A stretch of 12,368 bases of DNA from Promethearchaeota archaeon (lineage in GTDB: Archaea > Asgardarchaeota > Lokiarchaeia > Sigyniarchaeales > SOKP01). The notes beneath the pieces are model-generated. The model had not been told where the DNA came from. It made no database searches and saw only the letters and a list, made by a program, of their open reading frames with translations. The position numbers and the translations under genes are program-made. The number at the start of each line of letters is the position of its first letter. Within the stretch, counting starts at the first letter, position 1. Positions 1 to 11,030 of the stretch are shown here, piece by piece. Location of the stretch: NCBI GenBank assembly GCA_048940445.1, contig JBHLON010000066.1, positions 1 through 12,368 on the forward strand. The letters are read 5' to 3'.

Positions 1-1577
1 TTAGGGAGTTTCTTTATCCTTTCGATTAATTTTTGTGGTAGTTCTTTGTATATCTCTACTAAACCCGTAAGATATTTAGCTTGTTCTTCTTTAGTTAAGA
101 AAGCTAATTCTTTTAGAATTTCTTTCTTCTCTTTTTTAGGTATATTAAGGTCATTTATCTGTTTTCTAATCTCTTTTGATAGGACTGAAAATATTTTCGA
201 AAAATACTCTTTAACAATTTTTTTATCCTTTTCATTTTTTACTGGAAGTAAAGAATCATGAAGTCTTAATTTATCCATATTAGTGCCTTGTGGTGTAGTA
301 ACAGATCTGACTTCTATAGGTTTTTTTTCTTCTACTTTCTCTTCTTCAATATGATCAGCTTCCTCTTCTACTTCATGTTGGGAGGTCTCTTCTCCTCCTT
401 CTTTAGACAATTCTTGTTTAGACTCTATAGGTAATTCTTGTTTAGATTCTATTTCAGTGAATTCTTCTTGCTTTTCAATTTTCTCTGCTTTATCAAGTGT
501 ATAATCTTCCTTAGGGATTACTCTTTCGGGTTTTTTCACCCTTTCATATCCAGGGTACTCAACTTTCTTTATTTCGACAACTTCTTGAAATTTTGATAAA
601 TCTGATGGCTTTCTAGCAGCCAAGAAAAACATTAGGATTCCTTTTAATAAAATAAATATGCCGATTGCAAAAAAGATTGTTCCGAATATTCCTAAGATAA
701 AAGTACCAATAGCCACTTTAAAAGATAGCAACTTTTTCTCTCTGATTTTCTCTCTCCTTCGAGCATCAATAATGAGAATTAACATGGGAATAAAGCAGTA
801 CAATGCTAAGATTATTGAAATAATTGTAAATATTATCCATGGATCCAAACTACTAATTCTTAGCGAAATGAAGTTAATTAGACTTATTATAGGTCTTGCT
901 TGTAAATTAATTAGAGCAAATCTATATAAAACAAGAAAAGTAATGATAATTCCAGCTTTCGCAGAAAATTCATTGAGTGAATCCTTCATTTTTAGCCCAA
1001 AATTGTAAAGTCTATATGTTTTTTCTTTAGAATTAATAGCTACATATATAAAGATTAATATCCCCTTTATTAAGAGAAGCACTCCTACGCCATAAATAAT
1101 ACAACCCAATATACCAAAACAAAAAGCATCTAATAGTATTTCATCATATCTTTCAGCTTCGATTCTCGGTGAAATATGACTTATATCATATGCAACTATT
1201 AATAATCCAGCTGTTCCAAAAGATAAATGCCTAATTAAAATGTTAATCCAATTATTTGGATCAATGAAAATTTCAAATAATAAACCAATATAAATTCCTG
1301 AGAATATAAGTATAGGTAAATAAGCAAATTTATTGAATTTTTTAATTGCATTACTTAATTTAGACCTACGTCTATCAGTTATTGCATATGTCGGAGTTTT
1401 AGCAGAAGGAATTTTAGGATGTTTTAATTCTGGTTGCTTAAATTTTATTCCCTCTAAAGAAAATGGAGTTCCACACATTTCACAATAAACTTGAACCTTA
1501 TTTTCAATAAGTTCAGACAATTCTTTTGGAAATACATATCCACATTCCCGACATATGAATAATTTTTCTTTAACCAT
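1..1577 (-). CDS. Zinc-ribbon-containing polytopic membrane protein, hypothetical (>525 aa, C-terminus runs off the window)
   Basis: Not in the ORF track. Manual translation from the ATG at 1577 stays open to position 1. It begins MVKEKLFICRECGYVFPKELSELIENKVQVYCEMCGTPF (CxxC-x19-CxxC), followed by several hydrophobic segments, a Glu/Lys-rich linker (EEFTEIESKQELPIESKQELSKEGGEETSQHEVEEEADHIEEEKVEEKK) and a helical region ending ...KELPQKLIERIKKLP. A 525-codon frame without stops in such AT-rich DNA is very unlikely by chance. Confidence 0.9.
   Translation of the reverse strand, partial: MVKEKLFICRECGYVFPKELSELIENKVQVYCEMCGTPFSLEGIKFKQPELKHPKIPSAKTPTYAITDRRRSKLSNAIKKFNKFAYLPILIFSGIYIGLLFEIFIDPNNWINILIRHLSFGTAGLLIVAYDISHISPRIEAERYDEILLDAFCFGILGCIIYGVGVLLLIKGILIFIYVAINSKEKTYRLYNFGLKMKDSLNEFSAKAGIIITFLVLYRFALINLQARPIISLINFISLRISSLDPWIIFTIISIILALYCFIPMLILIIDARRREKIREKKLLSFKVAIGTFILGIFGTIFFAIGIFILLKGILMFFLAARKPSDLSKFQEVVEIKKVEYPGYERVKKPERVIPKEDYTLDKAEKIEKQEEFTEIESKQELPIESKQELSKEGGEETSQHEVEEEADHIEEEKVEEKKPIEVRSVTTPQGTNMDKLRLHDSLLPVKNEKDKKIVKEYFSKIFSVLSKEIRKQINDLNIPKKEKKEILKELAFLTKEEQAKYLTGLVEIYKELPQKLIERIKKLP
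409..452. repeat. In-frame 24-bp-period tandem duplication (IESKQELP/IESKQEL) in the acidic linker
   Basis: aattcttgtttagactctat (409-428) and aattcttgtttagattctat (433-452) are identical at 19 of 20 positions. Confidence 0.85.
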
Positions 1578-1737: not shown

Positions 1738-3303
1738 TTACATGAGAAGTTCTTTCCAGTTTATATTTTTAATTGTAATGTGGAGATAATGATCATCATC
1801 CACAATATTATATTTAAGGTTTTGAAACATATCTTTAGCTCTTTTCATTGCTTGTTCCAAAGGAACTACTTTATCATTTTTACCATGATATACAACAACA
1901 GGAATCCCAATTGGCTCAAATTTCGAATCTATTAGTTCCTCCATTGTAAAAAATGGGGCGAACAAGATTAAACGTTCTACCTTTTCTGGATTTTGCAAAG
2001 CGTATAAAGCTCCCATCAAACCTCCAAAACTTGAGCCGATAATTATCCATTGATCTCTTTCTTCCAAAATAGTTTTTAATTGCATCATTCTTTCGAATAA
2101 GATTGATTTTAAACTCTTTTCTGAATTATAAGGTTTGAAATCTGGTATAAGGATGTTCGGAAATATTGATTTTAAATATTGTCCTTTAAATCCTTTACCC
2201 GAACTTTCAAGTCCATGAATGAAAATAATATTGTAATCGCTTTTATACGAACTAGAACTAAAATCTTCACGAAATTTCTTTAATTCTTTTCTATAGCCTA
2301 AAAACATTAATAAAAAAAGAATAGAAAAATCTATTGCAATAATCGTTAGTGTTATACCATAATATTTATATGTATAATTTATTAAATTTAACCCTATACC
2401 AATTATAAAGCCCGTTAGGAGCCTTGAACTAGTTGTACTTTTTCTCAATAGTAACCTCTGTGTACCCCAATCTATCAAACCTGGAATAGGAGCCAATATC
2501 ATTAAAAATAATGCAATTTCGGGGCTAGGAGAAACATGAAATATCAAATTTATTAAATGGAAGAAAAATAATGTGATGATTCCACCTATGATTACACCTG
2601 AACATCTGGAGCAAAAATATATTTTAGTCCTTCCAAATTTTAAATGAAAGGTGTGGTCACTGGCAGAGAGTGGATGATGAGTTAAAATTAAATTATAGAT
2701 ATGGTGTTCTTCCCTCGCTAGATACCAATCATACAAATATAATAAAGCGGGGACAAAAAAAACTGCTGAAATTAAAGCTTGAATTAGGAATTTAGTTCCA
2801 TAATTAATTATAATAATAAATACATCAACTCCTCCCCTACTTACAATGAATTGAAAGATAATGATCTCTATAAATGTGATCAATGAAGAAATGCCCAATA
2901 TTAGAACAATTTTCAACATTTTTTTTTGATTTCGATACATTAATGGTTTATATTTGTATAATCCACAAATTAACCCATATATTGAAATAATTATTATCCA
3001 ATCAAGACGAATGGAGGAATAAAAAGATAATTGAAACAATAATTCACTTATAAAGCCAGAGATAAATCCATGTACTGAACCTGCAAGAACACTAAAAAAA
3101 GTAAATATAAGTAAAGTAAAATTGAAGTTTACTGAAAAATTATTGCTTTTTATAAAGGGGGTGGAAATAGAACCAAAAAGCTCTGAAGCATAAAAATAAC
3201 ACATAATAATAAAGATTTCAATAAGAATATTTACAAATATTGTGCGCTTTGTAATCTTTTGACCTTGATCTTCACTTATTCTCTTATCTATAGAATGTTC
3301 CAA
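1738..3303 (-). CDS. Membrane fusion protein: ECF S-component-like domain + DUF2085-like membrane domain + C-terminal alpha/beta hydrolase (YqiA/UPF0227-like esterase)
   Basis: 521 aa with a TTG start and an in-frame TAG two codons upstream. The N-terminal hydrophobic domain contains FFSVLAGSVHGFISGFISELL and WIIIISIYGLICG (S-component-like). The middle contains THHP...HTF...FCSRCSG and IDWGTQRLLLRKSTTSSRLLTGFIIG (DUF2085-like CxRC and DxxTQ...S...RxxTG). The C-terminus has FIHGLESS, GSSFGG (Ser425), HGKND (Asp477) and DDDH (His505). The hydrolase call is strong. The two membrane-domain calls rest on motif recognition only. Confidence 0.8.
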   Translation of the reverse strand: MEHSIDKRISEDQGQKITKRTIFVNILIEIFIIMCYFYASELFGSISTPFIKSNNFSVNFNFTLLIFTFFSVLAGSVHGFISGFISELLFQLSFYSSIRLDWIIIISIYGLICGLYKYKPLMYRNQKKMLKIVLILGISSLITFIEIIIFQFIVSRGGVDVFIIIINYGTKFLIQALISAVFFVPALLYLYDWYLAREEHHIYNLILTHHPLSASDHTFHLKFGRTKIYFCSRCSGVIIGGIITLFFFHLINLIFHVSPSPEIALFLMILAPIPGLIDWGTQRLLLRKSTTSSRLLTGFIIGIGLNLINYTYKYYGITLTIIAIDFSILFLLMFLGYRKELKKFREDFSSSSYKSDYNIIFIHGLESSGKGFKGQYLKSIFPNILIPDFKPYNSEKSLKSILFERMMQLKTILEERDQWIIIGSSFGGLMGALYALQNPEKVERLILFAPFFTMEELIDSKFEPIGIPVVVYHGKNDKVVPLEQAMKRAKDMFQNLKYNIVDDDHYLHITIKNINWKELLM

Positions 3304-3330: not shown

Positions 3331-3990
3331 TTAATTAAATATATGATCCAATTCTTCTAGTAATTTTTGCTTTGTTAATTCAAATCCTTTACGGAGGACT
3401 TTTAAAATTATATTCTTGCCAGCTAATACTTTTAATATAGAAGGATCTTTTTCCACAATTTCTATACCCGCTTCATTAAAATCTAATTGCCTCTTTAAAG
3501 CATAAAATGCTTTTTCCTTCGTTTTAAATGCTGCGCGGGATAATTCATCATAATTTGTTATGTTATCTTCATTAACACTCAGGAGTATAATGCTCTCTTG
3601 AACTTGTGTAATAAAACATTTCTTTGTAATTTCTTTTAAATTGGGGTAGTTCTTATGATCTCTCTTACACTGTCTATCAGTTTGGTCATTCTGAAGATAA
3701 ATAATAAAGTTTTTATCAATTATTTGATTGAATTTTTCCTCTGAGTAGTTACCATCTTTTATAAGTTCCTTAGCAGAATTAAGAGTCACTTTTATCTGTT
3801 CTAATGTACCTTTCCGAGCATCTTTACCCCAATATTGATAAAAAGATTTTACTACTGGTTTAACTACTACATTCAATACTCCTAAATCTAATTCACTATC
3901 TAATAAAGCTTTACCAAAATTTAAAGAAATTTCGGTCTGTTCTTTCATTCGTTCTTCTAAAATCCTATAATTCCGTTCTAGATGAGCCAT
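3331..3990 (-). CDS. Hypothetical alpha-helical protein, tandem paralogue A (219 aa)
   Basis: Long ORF aligning end to end with the neighbouring 221-aa ORF. No family recognised. Confidence 0.9.
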   Translation of the reverse strand: MAHLERNYRILEERMKEQTEISLNFGKALLDSELDLGVLNVVVKPVVKSFYQYWGKDARKGTLEQIKVTLNSAKELIKDGNYSEEKFNQIIDKNFIIYLQNDQTDRQCKRDHKNYPNLKEITKKCFITQVQESIILLSVNEDNITNYDELSRAAFKTKEKAFYALKRQLDFNEAGIEIVEKDPSILKVLAGKNIILKVLRKGFELTKQKLLEELDHIFN

Positions 3991-4101: not shown

Positions 4102-4767
4102 TTAATGTTTATGATTATATGTATCATTTAGTGCTTTCATAAATTCTTTTTTTGTTTGCTCAAAACCTTTCCGCAAAACTTTAACGATTATTCTTTTGGC
4201 AACTGGGATACTGAGAATACTTGGATCTTCTTCAATTAAACTTATTGACTCATCAGTGTATTCTAATTGCTTCATCAAATTTTTTTGGGCATTTTCTTTA
4301 GTACTAAATGCGATTCTACACAAATCACCGTAGTCATTTACTTCTTCCGCAACAATTAAAAAAGATACAACTTCTTTCACATAATTAATAAAGGTTTTCT
4401 TGGCTATTTCAACTAATTTATTGTAATTCTTGTGAGACTTTCTGCACTGATGTGTTGTTTGATCTGCTTTAAGATACTTAGGAAAAAACTCTTCAATTAT
4501 TCTATTGAAATCATGTTCAGAATCTGTATAAATAACTAGTTTCTTTCCCGCTTCTAACGTAACTTTTATCTGTTGCATGGTACCATATCGAGCATCATTT
4601 TGAGTCCAATAATCATAAAATGTTCTTACTATTGGTTTTACTATGAAATTGAGGATACCTGTGTCTAATTCAGTGTCGATTAGTTTTCTGCCCAACTTAA
4701 AAGACGTCTCCATTTGTTCAATCATTCGTGCTTCAACTATGTGTGAGTTGCGTTCGATATAAGCCAT
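4102..4767 (-). CDS. Hypothetical alpha-helical protein, tandem paralogue B (221 aa)
   Basis: Long ORF with about 107 identities over about 220 positions to paralogue A by manual alignment. A purine-rich GAAGGGGA lies 7 nt upstream of the ATG. Confidence 0.9.
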   Translation of the reverse strand: MAYIERNSHIVEARMIEQMETSFKLGRKLIDTELDTGILNFIVKPIVRTFYDYWTQNDARYGTMQQIKVTLEAGKKLVIYTDSEHDFNRIIEEFFPKYLKADQTTHQCRKSHKNYNKLVEIAKKTFINYVKEVVSFLIVAEEVNDYGDLCRIAFSTKENAQKNLMKQLEYTDESISLIEEDPSILSIPVAKRIIVKVLRKGFEQTKKEFMKALNDTYNHKH

Positions 4768-4966: not shown

Positions 4967-7900
4967 ATGCGTTATATTTTCAAGATATTAATCTTAGGTA
5001 ATGTAGAATATATTCCCTATTTCCTTACTAATGCATTTTCTGAGAATGGTGAAGAAAAAGATAGTATTTTATTGTGGTATAAAGAAATCAATGTATTTGA
5101 AGATGTTTGTGATTTAGAAGTTGATGCTATATCTGATATGATAAACACTAATTTTGATGAGATTCTTCCAGAAGTAGATGGGATAATTTACTTTCTAAAT
5201 CCACAAAACAAAGAGGAATTAGAGTATTTTGATCTAATTCTTCCTATTATCGATTCAGTTAAAAGAAATATTCCTATGGTCATAATATATTACAATTCTG
5301 ACGGGATAATCCCGATTTCTTCTAATGAATTACTCGAAAATTTATGGATAAAATATCCTCAATTAGAAGCTTTTGTTAATGTTTCTCCAAGAGAGTTCTA
5401 TCAACCACTTCAATGTTTAGGTCTAGCGATGATTACAGGAGACACACCCTTAAATATTGAAAATGCTTGGATGCGATTTCCAATTTTTATCTTGTTAGCA
5501 AATTTATATTTCGAAAGGCAACAATACTTTTATGCTGCTCAAGCAATTCGAAAAGCTGCTATGATTGCAGACATATTCAATAAAACTGAATTTTATATAA
5601 TTAGCGAGCAAGCAGCTTTACTTTATTCGAAAGTAAATTTATATTTAGAAGCCTCAAAAATTTTACAAAGTATAGATAAACGCAAATCTGAAAACTTTAA
5701 GAAATTATATGGGGAATCTATTATTTTAGAAGGAAATAAACTATTCAATAAGAGAAATTTTGAGGCTGCAGCTAAGCAGTATTTAGTAGCAGCTCAGTGG
5801 GCTACAATAGAATTAAGAGATATAGAATTAAGAAATGAAACCTTCAAATTGGCAATTAATTCATGGATATCTGCTTGCAAAGTTGAAAATTCTTTTAAAA
5901 TTCTAAATAGTTTACCACACTCCATTGTTCTTACAATTTTAAACGAGATTGATGATAAGATAATCGCAGCCGCTAATTTTTTAGTGAGAAACGAAAACCT
6001 AAATAGAGCAATAGATCAAATCTATAGGGCTATAACTGTCTATCAAAGAGAAGGACTTTTTGATCTTCTAGAAAAATTCACATATAAACAAGTTGATATA
6101 TTGATTAAGCTTTTAGAATTACAGATTAAGGAAAGAGATAATTATTCTGCTAAATCTACATATGATGAGATAGAAAACTTATGGGAATCTTATGGTGTAA
6201 AAAAGACTAATCTTGACAAATTATTAGAGGAATTAATTGAGCTTTTCCTAAACGAGTTAAATTTTGGGATAGCCACTGATTTAATGAATAAATTAAATTC
6301 TCTAGCTGGTAAAAAAAAATTAACTAAAATTAGAGAGAAAATAGAAGAAGAAGCTAAGGAATCAAGAAAAAAGGAATTTCAAGAGAATCTTGATAAAGGT
6401 CTCACGGTAATAAAGGAATTTCTTGAGGAAGAATTAAAGATTATAACAAATTTAAATGAACAGATAATTAAAGAAGCTAATATATTAGTTGAGAGTAATG
6501 AATTCATCAAGGCTGCTGAGCGAATAAAGAATCAGGCAAATTTTTTGAGAAATATTGGGAAAGAAGGGATTCAGGAAGAATTGCTTGAAAAATCATTAGA
6601 TATATTGCTTGTAGGTAAATCTATGACCCAATTTTTTATAATTTTTACGGAGTTATCTGAAACAACAAAAGAAAGATATTTAATAGAAAGCTTTCAAGTC
6701 ATTTCCAAAATGTTAAAAGAAATGAGGAATAAGAAAGACTTTCATGAACTAGAAAGAATATATGGAAATCTAATAAAGATATATAGAGATCAGGAATTAT
6801 ATGAACTAGCTCAAACAATTACAGAGGAATATATCGAAGTGATAAAATCATATGCAATTCAAATTTTAGAAACTGAAAAAAGTGCCCGGGGAATAGAACG
6901 TGTATTAAATTTAGTAAATAGAATATTAGAAATTTCACATGCTTATTTAGAAGATAAAAAAATTAATCTTAACGATATTTATAAAATTATCGCTGAAATA
7001 TACATTGAACTTGGAAATCTATCAGAAGCTCATGCCATTAACGATCTAATTGACAATAAGTCGATTAACGCAGAAATTAACAGAGAAATCGAAAGAATCG
7101 AATCACAAAGAAGTGCAATTGAAATTAAGGAAGCTGAAGAGGCTCATAGAAGAGAAACTCTTCCAGAAAGGCTATCCCATATACAAATGATAGCTAGGGG
7201 TGAATTTATTAGTCATTATAATCAACTTAGACAGAGAAGAGCCTATAGGAGGGCATATTTCGATGCGGCTTTGAAATTTTTAGACTCTAAGGACTATGAA
7301 AAAGCAATTGAAAAATATGAAGAAAGTATTCATCAACTAATTAAGATCAAGCAATATAACTTAGCTGGAATATCATTAGCTGTAATGGCTGTTATTAGAT
7401 TGAAACAAGAAAAATTTAATTTAGTTGAACCCTTATTGAAAAAAATTAAAGATACTTATCCTAAATTAGTACGCTTATTATCAGAAACATTTTCAGTTAT
7501 ATTAATTGAGTATCTTATCGATTTAAATAAAATTAAGAAAATATTTTTAATGGATTATGTAAACTTCTTTGAAATCCTGCCGTTGTTTAAAGAAGAAGAA
7601 ATATTCATAGAGAAAGATAAGAGTAAGGAATTACGAGAAGAAATTCCAATCAGTTCAATAGAAATGGATAACTTGAAAGAAAAAATAGTTAATTTAGCTG
7701 ATAAAATCCAATTAGAGAAATCTGATATTGCAAAGAGAAAATTAATGAGAGATCAATACTGGAGATATGCTTTGGAAGACCTTTCAAATAAGAGATATTA
7801 TGTAGCAGCAATAGATGATTATCTTAATGTAATCCCCCAATTAATGGAAAAAAAGTTTTATAAACAAACGGCAGTTAGCCTCATAATTGGATGCCTATTA

Positions 7901-8680
7901 ATAATTAAGGGGAGAGATATCAAATCAGCTAAATCTAGTTTTTATGAAAACCTAAGTAGATTAGAAAAATACAAATCTCCAATTGAAGATTTGGCAGAAC
8001 TAAAGCTTATAAAAGAATTATTCTTTGCGATGGAAAATGATTTGAAGGAAATTACAAAAATAATTTTAACTACTCTTATTCATAAGTTAGCATTATTTGA
8101 TCAAGAAAGCGATTATATTAGTAGCTTGCTTCCAGAAGAAGTTGCTCCACAACAAGAAATAGCAATTTCAAGAGAAGAATTAGGAAAGAAAACTATTGAT
8201 TTACTTCAACGCGAACAAAATTTAGCTAACTTAAAGCAAAACTTGCCAGATATCAGAAGAGAGAAAGAAGATGTTCTGAAGATACGTACTGCTCTGAGGA
8301 GATATTATTATAAAGATATCATCTCTGCCTTAGAAGATGATAATTTGAAACTTGCTGGAGATTTGTATTATGATCTTGCTAAATCTGCCTCTGAAAAGAA
8401 CGACTATACTACAACTTCGTTGTTGATACTATTACATGGATTAGCTTTAATAAAAAATAAGGACCCAATAACTAATATAAAATCAAGTATCGATAAATTT
8501 CTGAACTCTCTGGGATTAAATAAAAGAGCAGTAGAAAAAACTTTTTATATTAAATGCATAAATTTCATTCTAGATGTTGTGATAAATAAGCTTGATAAAT
8601 ATATAGCTCCTATAAATGAAATGTTACAAGTTTTACCTTTATTCGAGGAAGAAAACAAATTAAAACAAATAGAACTTTAA
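4967..8680 (+). CDS. Large scaffold-like protein: N-terminal degenerate small-GTPase-like domain + TPR/SNAP-like alpha-solenoid + three C-terminal helical repeats (1237 aa)
   Basis: Residues 1-158 follow the Ras/Rab strand pattern (YIFKILILG, YKEINVFEDVCDLEV, EVDGIIYFLN, NIPMVIIYYNSD) without GK[S/T], DxxG or NKxD. TPR-like helices follow, for example EGNKLFNKRNFEAAAKQY and ALKFLDSKDYEKAIEKYEESI. Three repeats end in LPLFKEE, LALFDQE and LPLFEEE. No obvious transmembrane segment. Confidence 0.85.
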   Translation: MRYIFKILILGNVEYIPYFLTNAFSENGEEKDSILLWYKEINVFEDVCDLEVDAISDMINTNFDEILPEVDGIIYFLNPQNKEELEYFDLILPIIDSVKRNIPMVIIYYNSDGIIPISSNELLENLWIKYPQLEAFVNVSPREFYQPLQCLGLAMITGDTPLNIENAWMRFPIFILLANLYFERQQYFYAAQAIRKAAMIADIFNKTEFYIISEQAALLYSKVNLYLEASKILQSIDKRKSENFKKLYGESIILEGNKLFNKRNFEAAAKQYLVAAQWATIELRDIELRNETFKLAINSWISACKVENSFKILNSLPHSIVLTILNEIDDKIIAAANFLVRNENLNRAIDQIYRAITVYQREGLFDLLEKFTYKQVDILIKLLELQIKERDNYSAKSTYDEIENLWESYGVKKTNLDKLLEELIELFLNELNFGIATDLMNKLNSLAGKKKLTKIREKIEEEAKESRKKEFQENLDKGLTVIKEFLEEELKIITNLNEQIIKEANILVESNEFIKAAERIKNQANFLRNIGKEGIQEELLEKSLDILLVGKSMTQFFIIFTELSETTKERYLIESFQVISKMLKEMRNKKDFHELERIYGNLIKIYRDQELYELAQTITEEYIEVIKSYAIQILETEKSARGIERVLNLVNRILEISHAYLEDKKINLNDIYKIIAEIYIELGNLSEAHAINDLIDNKSINAEINREIERIESQRSAIEIKEAEEAHRRETLPERLSHIQMIARGEFISHYNQLRQRRAYRRAYFDAALKFLDSKDYEKAIEKYEESIHQLIKIKQYNLAGISLAVMAVIRLKQEKFNLVEPLLKKIKDTYPKLVRLLSETFSVILIEYLIDLNKIKKIFLMDYVNFFEILPLFKEEEIFIEKDKSKELREEIPISSIEMDNLKEKIVNLADKIQLEKSDIAKRKLMRDQYWRYALEDLSNKRYYVAAIDDYLNVIPQLMEKKFYKQTAVSLIIGCLLIIKGRDIKSAKSSFYENLSRLEKYKSPIEDLAELKLIKELFFAMENDLKEITKIILTTLIHKLALFDQESDYISSLLPEEVAPQQEIAISREELGKKTIDLLQREQNLANLKQNLPDIRREKEDVLKIRTALRRYYYKDIISALEDDNLKLAGDLYYDLAKSASEKNDYTTTSLLILLHGLALIKNKDPITNIKSSIDKFLNSLGLNKRAVEKTFYIKCINFILDVVINKLDKYIAPINEMLQVLPLFEEENKLKQIEL
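7226..8650 (+). repeat. Three protein-level repeats (periods 167 and 183 aa) in the 1237-aa protein
   Basis: The repeats start LRQRRAYRRAYF (aa 754), IAKRKLMRDQYW (aa 921) and LKIRTALRRYYY (aa 1104). Their LxLF end motifs start at aa 871, 1041 and 1223. Confidence 0.85.
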
Positions 8681-8687
8681 CCTTTTA

Positions 8688-9596
8688 TTAAATATCAGCA
8701 TATTTCATTAGATCCTTAACTCTCATTCGGAGAGTTACTTCAGTTACACGAGCTAATTTACTTATTTCTTTTTGAGTTCTATTTTCATTACAAACTTTTG
8801 ATCCAATATAAATTGCCGCTGCTGCAATACCTTTAGGATCTTTACCAGCTGAATTGAATCCGTGATCCTTCGCATTTTCAATAATTTTTACTGCTACGTT
8901 CCTACATTGCATCGATAGTTTTAATTCATCATTAAATTTATCAACATACCTGTCTGGTGTGAAATGTTGGACTTTCAAATTTAATTTGGGCAAAACCTCC
9001 ATCAGAATCAACCTATAACTCTTTATTACTTTCTTTTTGGGTATCTGAGCTACCTTTGTTATTTCCTCTACGGTTCTGGGAATACCATGAACACGTAAGG
9101 CACAAAAGATTGAAGCAGAAAGCAAAGTATCAATACTTCGCCCCATTGTTAATTTCTTTTTTACAGTTTGCGTATAAATCCGTAAGGCATCTTCAGCTAC
9201 AGTATCAGGGATTCCTAACCTTTTTTGTAAGCGTTGTAAATTGGGTAAAGCAATCCATAGATTTCGCTCATAACTCGTTGTCAAGGATCTATGAATTTTT
9301 GCTAATCTATTAAACTTAGATTTATACTTTGGACTGAGTAATGTTCCTCTCGCATCACGGCTTCCTCGAATAATTGTTCTGGGTCCGATAGGACTATAAA
9401 CACGTTCATTGCTTTTTCTTTTCTGAATTTCCTCTTGAGTAAATGCTCTCCTTGGGGAATCATCCAGAATTCTGCTATATACATAACCGCAGTTTAAACA
9501 AACATTAAAGCCATCTTCCTCACTGATTTTTGGAGAATCACAGCACTGTTTAACATCTTCTTCAAAAAAGTTATCTTCTTCAAAATTTGATGGCAT
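8688..9596 (-). CDS. tfb: Transcription initiation factor IIB (archaeal TFB), probably an alternative paralogue
   Basis: 302 aa with an N-terminal Zn ribbon (CC...DGFNVCLNCG), a B-linker, and two cyclin-fold repeats carrying GRSIDTLLSASIFCALRVHGIPRTVEEI and GKDPKGIAAAAIYIG...RTQKEISKLARVTEVTLRMRVKDL. Confidence 0.95.
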   Translation of the reverse strand: MPSNFEEDNFFEEDVKQCCDSPKISEEDGFNVCLNCGYVYSRILDDSPRRAFTQEEIQKRKSNERVYSPIGPRTIIRGSRDARGTLLSPKYKSKFNRLAKIHRSLTTSYERNLWIALPNLQRLQKRLGIPDTVAEDALRIYTQTVKKKLTMGRSIDTLLSASIFCALRVHGIPRTVEEITKVAQIPKKKVIKSYRLILMEVLPKLNLKVQHFTPDRYVDKFNDELKLSMQCRNVAVKIIENAKDHGFNSAGKDPKGIAAAAIYIGSKVCNENRTQKEISKLARVTEVTLRMRVKDLMKYADI

Positions 9597-9803: not shown

Positions 9804-11030
9804 ATGTTAACAGATATTTCAAATATAATTAATATCTTTTCGAAATTCTTGGATGCGAAAGAATCTAAAATAAATAAATTAAACACTTTGGATGAAATAA
9901 AAGAATTACCTATCCATTCTTTTAAATTCTTTAATAAAGAGATCGCTAAGTTATTAAAAGAAATTTTAGATGTTTCAAATATAGAACACCTATCAAAAAT
10001 TAACAGAGAAGACCCATTTGAAACTATAAGAAAGAAACATGTTGGAGAACAATTAGAGATTAACAAGAAAATTGAAAATTTAAAACAGGATTATCCAGAA
10101 TTAGAAAAAAATTTAAAGAAAGCAATTACAATAAGCTCTATAGTAATCAATGCTAAAGATCAAGATGAAATTTTTGAAAAACATGCTCAGAAAATTATGA
10201 TTATTGGTCTGGATAATGCAGGTAAAACAGCTATTTTATCAAAATATGGAGGAAGATTAGGGATAGACGAATTGGTAAACTTAAAACCAACTAAAGGTGT
10301 ACACCGCGAATTAATCAAAACTACAGATTCTGAACTAGACGTTTTTGTATGGGATATGGGTGGCCAAAAACTATATCGAAATAAATATTTAAAGCACCCA
10401 GAGTATTATTTTCTTCAAATAGATTTATTAATTTATGTTATTGATGTTCAAGATTCAGAGAGGTTTGCAGAATCATTTGAATATTTCGAAGAAATATTAC
10501 AAATTCTTATAACTTTGGAAGAAAATCCATTTATTGTAATTTATATTCATAAAGTAGATCCAGATATTAAAAGTGAGCCTGAGATCCTTTTAAGTATAGA
10601 ACTATTGAAAGATAACATTAATACTATAATGAATCAGTATGGTTTTGATTATGAAGCTTATCTTACTTCAATTTACTCGTTAATTTCAAATGAACCTAAA
10701 TTTTCAAAATATATCAAAGAAGTGATGAAAACCACTGATTCATTGACCAATCCAACATTAAGGAAAGTAGAAGGTCTGGGTAAAACCTTGGAAGAAACGA
10801 TGAATGCTGTAATCCGTCTCTCAGAAAGTATATCAAAGCAGTTAAGTGATCTTGACAGTAGATTAAAAGCAATAGAGAGTGGAGCGTTTCAAGTGGCACA
10901 AAGTGGGATCCCAATTAGTATTGCTAATCCCAATCAAGCACAAGCACGAGTTAATCCAGCAGATTCTCGACTGAAGGTTCTTGACGAATTGAAACAACTT
11001 TTTGATAAGAAAAAAAGACTTAATTTATAG
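9804..11030 (+). CDS. Arf/Rag-like small GTPase with N-terminal helical extension and C-terminal coiled coil (408 aa)
   Basis: All G motifs are intact: G1 GLDNAGKT (aa 135-142), G2 PTKG, G3 WDMGGQ (183-188), G4 HKVD (249-252), G5 TSI (288-290). A heptad-like segment LRKVEGL...LSDLDSRLKAIESG follows, then the terminal helix SRLKVLDELKQLFDKKK. Confidence 0.92.
   Translation: MLTDISNIINIFSKFLDAKESKINKLNTLDEIKELPIHSFKFFNKEIAKLLKEILDVSNIEHLSKINREDPFETIRKKHVGEQLEINKKIENLKQDYPELEKNLKKAITISSIVINAKDQDEIFEKHAQKIMIIGLDNAGKTAILSKYGGRLGIDELVNLKPTKGVHRELIKTTDSELDVFVWDMGGQKLYRNKYLKHPEYYFLQIDLLIYVIDVQDSERFAESFEYFEEILQILITLEENPFIVIYIHKVDPDIKSEPEILLSIELLKDNINTIMNQYGFDYEAYLTSIYSLISNEPKFSKYIKEVMKTTDSLTNPTLRKVEGLGKTLEETMNAVIRLSESISKQLSDLDSRLKAIESGAFQVAQSGIPISIANPNQAQARVNPADSRLKVLDELKQLFDKKKRLNL

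Follow-up and report, generated by a model that had tools for sequence, protein, structure and literature searches.

A protocoatomer coat protein combines a beta-propeller with a solenoid. In the large TRAPP subunits, a GTPase-like domain is combined with a solenoid and with four Ig domains (PMC10152722; PMC8204860), and in Trs85 the GTPase-like domain cannot bind nucleotide (PMC8204860). Fungal Trs85 has no C-terminal Ig-like domains. Another described system is AAGAB, a class i pseudoGTPase that needs no nucleotide to bind longin-fold sigma subunits (PMC12490416). No Asgard pseudoGTPase was found in the literature searched.

The window, i.e. the whole stretch of 12,368 nucleotides analysed here, is a complete contig of a 3.64-Mb genome of a Promethearchaeota archaeon and carries on its forward strand an open reading frame of 1237 amino acids (4967-8680). 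The initial annotation had described this frame as a dead GTPase head on a helical tail, an observation that is confirmed here, and every motif that it quoted was found in the frame. No membrane helix was detected in the 1237-residue protein, the peak 19-residue hydropathy being 1.36. The gene is divided as follows:

4967-8680, forward strand: whole gene, pseudo-GTPase with helical modules, soluble according to hydropathy
4967-5443, forward strand: pseudo-GTPase domain, probably Rab-derived, aa 1-159, pI 4.0, G1, G3 and G4 lost
5438-5482, forward strand: conserved linker between head and solenoid, aa 158-172 (G158, N163, W168, P172), with a putative packing role
5483-5641, forward strand: TPR-like cap helices, aa 173-225, from the model
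5642-6358, forward strand: TPR-like block A1, aa 226-464, TPR_2 in 28 of 60 members, apparent duplicate of A2
6389-7114, forward strand: TPR-like block A2, aa 475-716, tandem duplicate of A1 as judged by hhalign
7175-7612, forward strand: helical module B1, aa 737-882, with a long entry helix (701-759)
7679-8122, forward strand: helical module B2, aa 905-1052
8225-8668, forward strand: helical module B3, aa 1087-1234

The PDB sequence search with the whole protein returned nothing and the Pfam search only TPR matches, all sub-threshold; the head on its own matched nothing in either. Folding was performed for aa 1-235 and aa 700-1237, and the A blocks were judged from sequence profiles. The predicted model of aa 1-235 has the topology of a G-domain in its head, and the structural neighbours listed for this head include Rab23, Sec4, Rab3C, Ypt32 and KRAS with 10-17% identity, which bears out the earlier assignment of residues 1 to 158 or 160 to a G-domain fold. 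The loss of the nucleotide motifs, also noted earlier, extends to the orthologues: neither the G1 motif GxxxxGK[ST] with its P-loop lysine nor the G4 motif [NT]KxD occurs in any of the 140 full-length members. The G3 motif DxxG after strand 3 is absent in this protein; five close relatives have an out-of-register DxxG string at 57-60, and none of them has a P-loop. Conservation within the head is lowest in the P-loop and alpha1 (0.39) and reaches 0.79 in beta4. The most conserved elements, beta4, R100, P103, W127, E134 and the linker residues W168 and P172, may represent the face that is docked on the solenoid. In two pairwise comparisons, dN/dS of the head was 0.077 and 0.169, with higher values of 0.23-0.24 for A2 and the B modules. 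Since the motifs are lost family-wide and the head is under selection, decay confined to one genome is excluded. According to the predicted model, the head is a G fold in which the G motifs are lost in all orthologues, i.e. the class i pseudoGTPase pattern, and it probably does not bind nucleotide. A sensor role, in which the head still binds nucleotide or another small ligand via non-canonical residues, would be in keeping with the intact fold, with the conservation of G11, D64 and D71 and with the DxxG string of the five relatives. However, the P-loop is devoid of lysine and small residues in every member, variability is highest in the P-loop and G4 loops, and acidic residues strongly prevail in the head (27 D/E versus 9 K/R). 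We regard such a sensor as very unlikely.

When the head profile was compared with 30 GTPases from its own genome, most of them Rab-like, the match was 89% (E = 2e-6), as opposed to 15% for the Arf/Rag-like set. Its strongest other match within this genome is a Rab-like domain that is partly degenerate (E = 5e-5). More Rab-like residues are kept in strands 2-3 of the deepest, Sigynarchaeal-type members, one of which is named Sigynarchaeota. It is therefore likely that the head derives from a Lokiarchaeal Rab-like GTPase, a statement of profile affinity and not of an order of events. Within the order, the gene was matched in 121 of 134, 13 of 14, 1 of 1 and 4 of 4 genomes of the four families, mostly as a single copy, and it was not found in seven genomes of sister orders. 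Elsewhere in the phylum only weak, GTPase-level matches occur; those from other classes of Asgard archaea, with E between 1e-4 and 1e-5, were rejected as family members, the two inspected being ordinary GTPases. Both cultured Lokiarchaea carry the scaffold. The orthologues of P. syntrophicum (DSAG12_01390), L. ossiferum (NEF87_003838) and Harpocratesius (MCF2141874.1) are all annotated as hypothetical, and neither the orthologue tags nor a family name is mentioned in the main texts of the literature searched.

The genome of the window also contains at least 53 open reading frames with G1, G3 and G4 intact. Further pseudo-GTPase candidates are L093:615-1865 (reverse strand) and L094:1001-2545 (forward strand) of the same genome, with Rab-like domains, partly degenerate P-loops and longer tails.

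The initial annotation had recognised a TPR/SNAP-like helical tail of about 1000 residues, which holds, and had missed its architecture of two plus three modules. A1 and A2 align in hhalign over 237 columns with a probability of 97.5% (E = 5e-12). The number of B modules has changed at least five times between close relatives on the tree, several lineages having one module fewer, and in longer proteins the B profile matches only this pseudo-GTPase scaffold family. These profile comparisons indicate that the tail grew by internal duplications within the family. The model of aa 700-1237 is all helical (pLDDT 89, pTM 0.40), in agreement with the earlier remark that no Ig-like beta C-terminus is visible, and has disordered linkers between the B modules at 886-894 and 1059-1066. 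B3 contains an invariant Arg in a basic helix and an invariant Glu in a closing LPLFxxE motif.

The top structural neighbours of the B region are alpha/gamma-SNAP and Sec17, and related helical folds nearby are the PCI helical bundle of Rpn6/CSN, Get4 and HAP40. The B modules could accordingly be related to the C-terminal half of alpha/gamma-SNAP and form a disassembly adaptor that brings a Cdc48/NSF-type AAA ATPase to a substrate held by the head and A blocks, which we consider rather unlikely. Unlike SNAP, the B module has about half the length, is tandemly repeated and shows no detectable sequence match, and its rigid fit is poor. There was no PF14938 or full-length SNAP match; six of 94 modules gave matches that did not reach the cut-off, the best with E = 0.005. 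Across 251 Asgard genomes, the SNAP Pfam model matched only in its TPR part (to about 226 of 282), in other proteins, and for this reason there is no full SNAP profile for a profile comparison. An even more specific arrangement, a dead Rab head with tandem true homologues of the SNAP C-terminal domain acting as an adaptor of a Cdc48-type ATPase at an actin/BAR membrane cortex, is distinctly unlikely; if true, it would mean that the SNAP module has a prokaryotic source and that the TRAPP-like design of dead GTPase plus solenoid was invented independently.

Outside the Sigynarchaeal-type branch, a divergent upstream block is kept, which comprises a gene of 220-240 aa without family, a DUF2085 membrane protein and an HTH regulator. 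In the window, the scaffold gene is surrounded by the following genes:

3-1577, reverse strand: zinc-ribbon, multi-pass membrane protein with an acidic linker, no family match, conserved in the loci of family f1
1738-3303, reverse strand: membrane protein of ECF S-component-like and DUF2085 type with a fused alpha/beta hydrolase
3331-3990 and 4102-4767, reverse strand: two tandem paralogues of a 220-aa family without Pfam match, present in the upstream block of 20 of 21 loci
8688-9596, reverse strand: TFIIB gene (tfb), convergent with the scaffold gene, with 7 bases between the two stops, conserved in the loci of f1
9804-11030, forward strand: intact Arf/Rag-like GTPase, extended by 125 aa at its N-terminus and coiled at its C-terminus

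In many relatives, the gene at 1738-3303 is represented by two genes or is without the hydrolase. Downstream neighbours vary with the lineage: f1 has tfb and the Arf/Rag-like GTPase, L. ossiferum has a BAR protein, and one clade has a 320-aa TPR-bearing gene with an E2 enzyme. No operon partner emerges from gene order. The Arf/Rag-like GTPase, two genes from the scaffold in f1 and a tandem triplicate in L038, is adjacent only in f1 and one f2 contig, and was not taken as a partner because of this limited adjacency and the opposite-strand tfb in between. The BAR-domain protein Bar2 (UYP47554.1; L083:12208-13560, forward strand) lies directly downstream of the L. ossiferum orthologue on the same strand. 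It was rejected as a conserved neighbour, being adjacent in L. ossiferum only; BAR relatives occur in 25 of 61 genomes of the order and are elsewhere unlinked to the scaffold. In Harpocratesius-like genomes, a co-oriented downstream gene (L031:7032-8915, reverse strand) has by eye a gelsolin-like N-terminus, for which Pfam and PDB gave no support.

Two other neighbours look by eye like longin proteins. One is a 153-aa gene in G314 (L090:7363-7821, reverse strand), 87 bases upstream of the orthologue on the same strand, whose profile matches about 44 open reading frames in the genome of the window. The other is the 320-aa gene (L098:9565-10527, reverse strand) with a longin-looking N-terminus and a TPR-like tail, which is present in 74 of 81 genomes of the order and in one clade adjoins the scaffold and the E2 enzyme. 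The longin identity of these neighbours received no support from Pfam, PDB or hhalign. The initial annotation had rightly placed a GTPase-like domain, followed by a solenoid, at the start of the large TRAPP subunits (PMC10152722; PMC8204860), and this common domain order, together with the two longin-looking genes, would suit a true homologue or functional equivalent of TRAPPC8/9/10/11 whose solenoid binds a longin protein and anchors a Rab-activating complex. However, the C-terminus is all-helical instead of four Ig domains, the tail stems from family-specific duplications, no conserved amphipathic insert lies between head and solenoid, and the family occurs in a single order. None of 41 genomes of this order had a match to Bet3/TRAPPC3 (PF04051), as against two of two genomes of family f9, the positive control, in which the scaffold gene was not found, but a distant TRAPPC3/V4R-like protein is reported in MK-D1, and distant V4R/TRAPPC3-like and longin proteins in Lokiarchaea (PMC10933270). 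PF04628 (TRAPPC2 longin) had no match in the own genome. The Pfam TRAPP models, run on the own genome, gave no match on the scaffold gene and matched nowhere or only controls. Among the best 50 structural matches of aa 1-235 there is no large TRAPP subunit, although a weaker match may lie below these, and the sole TRAPPII entry is the Ypt32 chain. Homology or equivalence to a large TRAPP subunit is highly improbable, and the restriction to one order makes convergence likelier than ancestry of the eukaryotic complex.

In the supplement of bioRxiv 10.1101/2025.11.30.690169, GNAMCCOK_03871 equals UYP47554.1 (Bar2), so that GNAMCCOK_03870 should be the adjacent orthologue UYP47553.1; its listed mass is 143.86 kDa, compared with 143.95 kDa computed for the orthologue. 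The same supplement gives eight peptides for the L. ossiferum orthologue, and in the Lokiactin pull-down it was quantified in three of three samples and in none of three IgG controls, with a log2 ratio of 0.90 (adjusted p 0.044; controls imputed; authors' cut-off 1) (10.1101/2025.11.30.690169). Roughly at least 130 proteins rank above it. Being below the cut-off and inside a broad background, the pull-down shows that the protein is expressed and does no more than hint at the actin cortex. The orthologue is not among the proteome entries listed by abundance down to log2 14.4, which suggests low abundance; its neighbours have 18.5 and 20.2. The RPKM of the MK-D1 orthologue is 202, with 171-328 for neighbouring hypotheticals, and is not separable from background. 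RNA data for the Harpocratesius locus were not present among the sequencing runs searched.

This apparent scarcity bears on a structural coat or lattice, in which the acidic head (pI 4.0) would bind the basic B modules (pI 8.5-9.1) of other molecules to form a network under the membrane. Charge complementarity and a layout of one head with two to three flexible tails would suit such branching, but judging from the proteome entries listed (at least log2 14.4) the L. ossiferum orthologue looks too scarce for a coat, which makes a coat fit poorly, and the protein has neither a beta-propeller nor a membrane anchor. We give this lattice very little credence. Of the earlier idea of a non-catalytic scaffold with parallel architecture, the G-domain fold, the motif loss and the helical tail stand, and a specific link to TRAPP, tethers or coats is not supported: among the structural matches listed, true Rabs are closer to the head than any TRAPP subunit, the tail is self-duplicated, the four Ig domains are missing and abundance seems to be low.

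We propose, with a probability of about 60%, that the protein is a nucleotide-independent, probably low-copy, multivalent adaptor or scaffold. In the ancestor of the order, a Rab-like GTPase from the expanded Lokiarchaeal set would have been joined to a TPR protein and would have lost its switch, the dead head now being a constitutive binding surface. The back face of the head (beta4, alpha4, beta6, alpha5 and the linker) may dock on the first TPR helices, A1 and A2 would serve as a spacer with peptide-binding grooves, and each of the two to three flexibly linked B modules might bind one copy of the same partner via its basic helix, resulting in avidity. In this way, a multi-protein complex would be held together or its assembly aided. 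Given such a scaffold, the likeliest setting is the membrane/actin cortex, although this placement is tentative and more likely wrong than right.

In Lokiarchaea, one of the many Rab-like switches would thus have become a conserved module without catalytic function, carried by a large helical scaffold. Such a combination of dead GTPase and scaffold is known otherwise from TRAPP subunits and AAGAB in eukaryotic trafficking. The orthologues in both cultured species (DSAG12_01390, NEF87_003838) open binding, structure and partners to experiments. Unlike Rab/Ras and the Asgard Rab-like GTPases, the scaffold has lost G1, G3 and G4 family-wide and continues behind its head with about 1080 aa of helical modules, and unlike a protocoatomer coat protein it begins with a G-domain and has no beta-propeller. 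It shares the sequence of GTPase-like domain and alpha-solenoid with TRAPPC8/Trs85, C9/Trs120, C10/Trs130 and C11, but has duplicated A blocks and two to three B modules instead of four Ig domains; the design parallels that of the large TRAPP subunits, and kinship is not supported by the present evidence. By analogy, the best functional precedent for the head would be AAGAB: like its N-terminal domain and the GTPase-like domain of Trs85, the head is a G fold without G motifs and a probable protein-binding module (PMC12490416; PMC8204860), whereas, in contrast to both, it is archaeal, likely of separate Rab-like origin, and known here from sequence and model.
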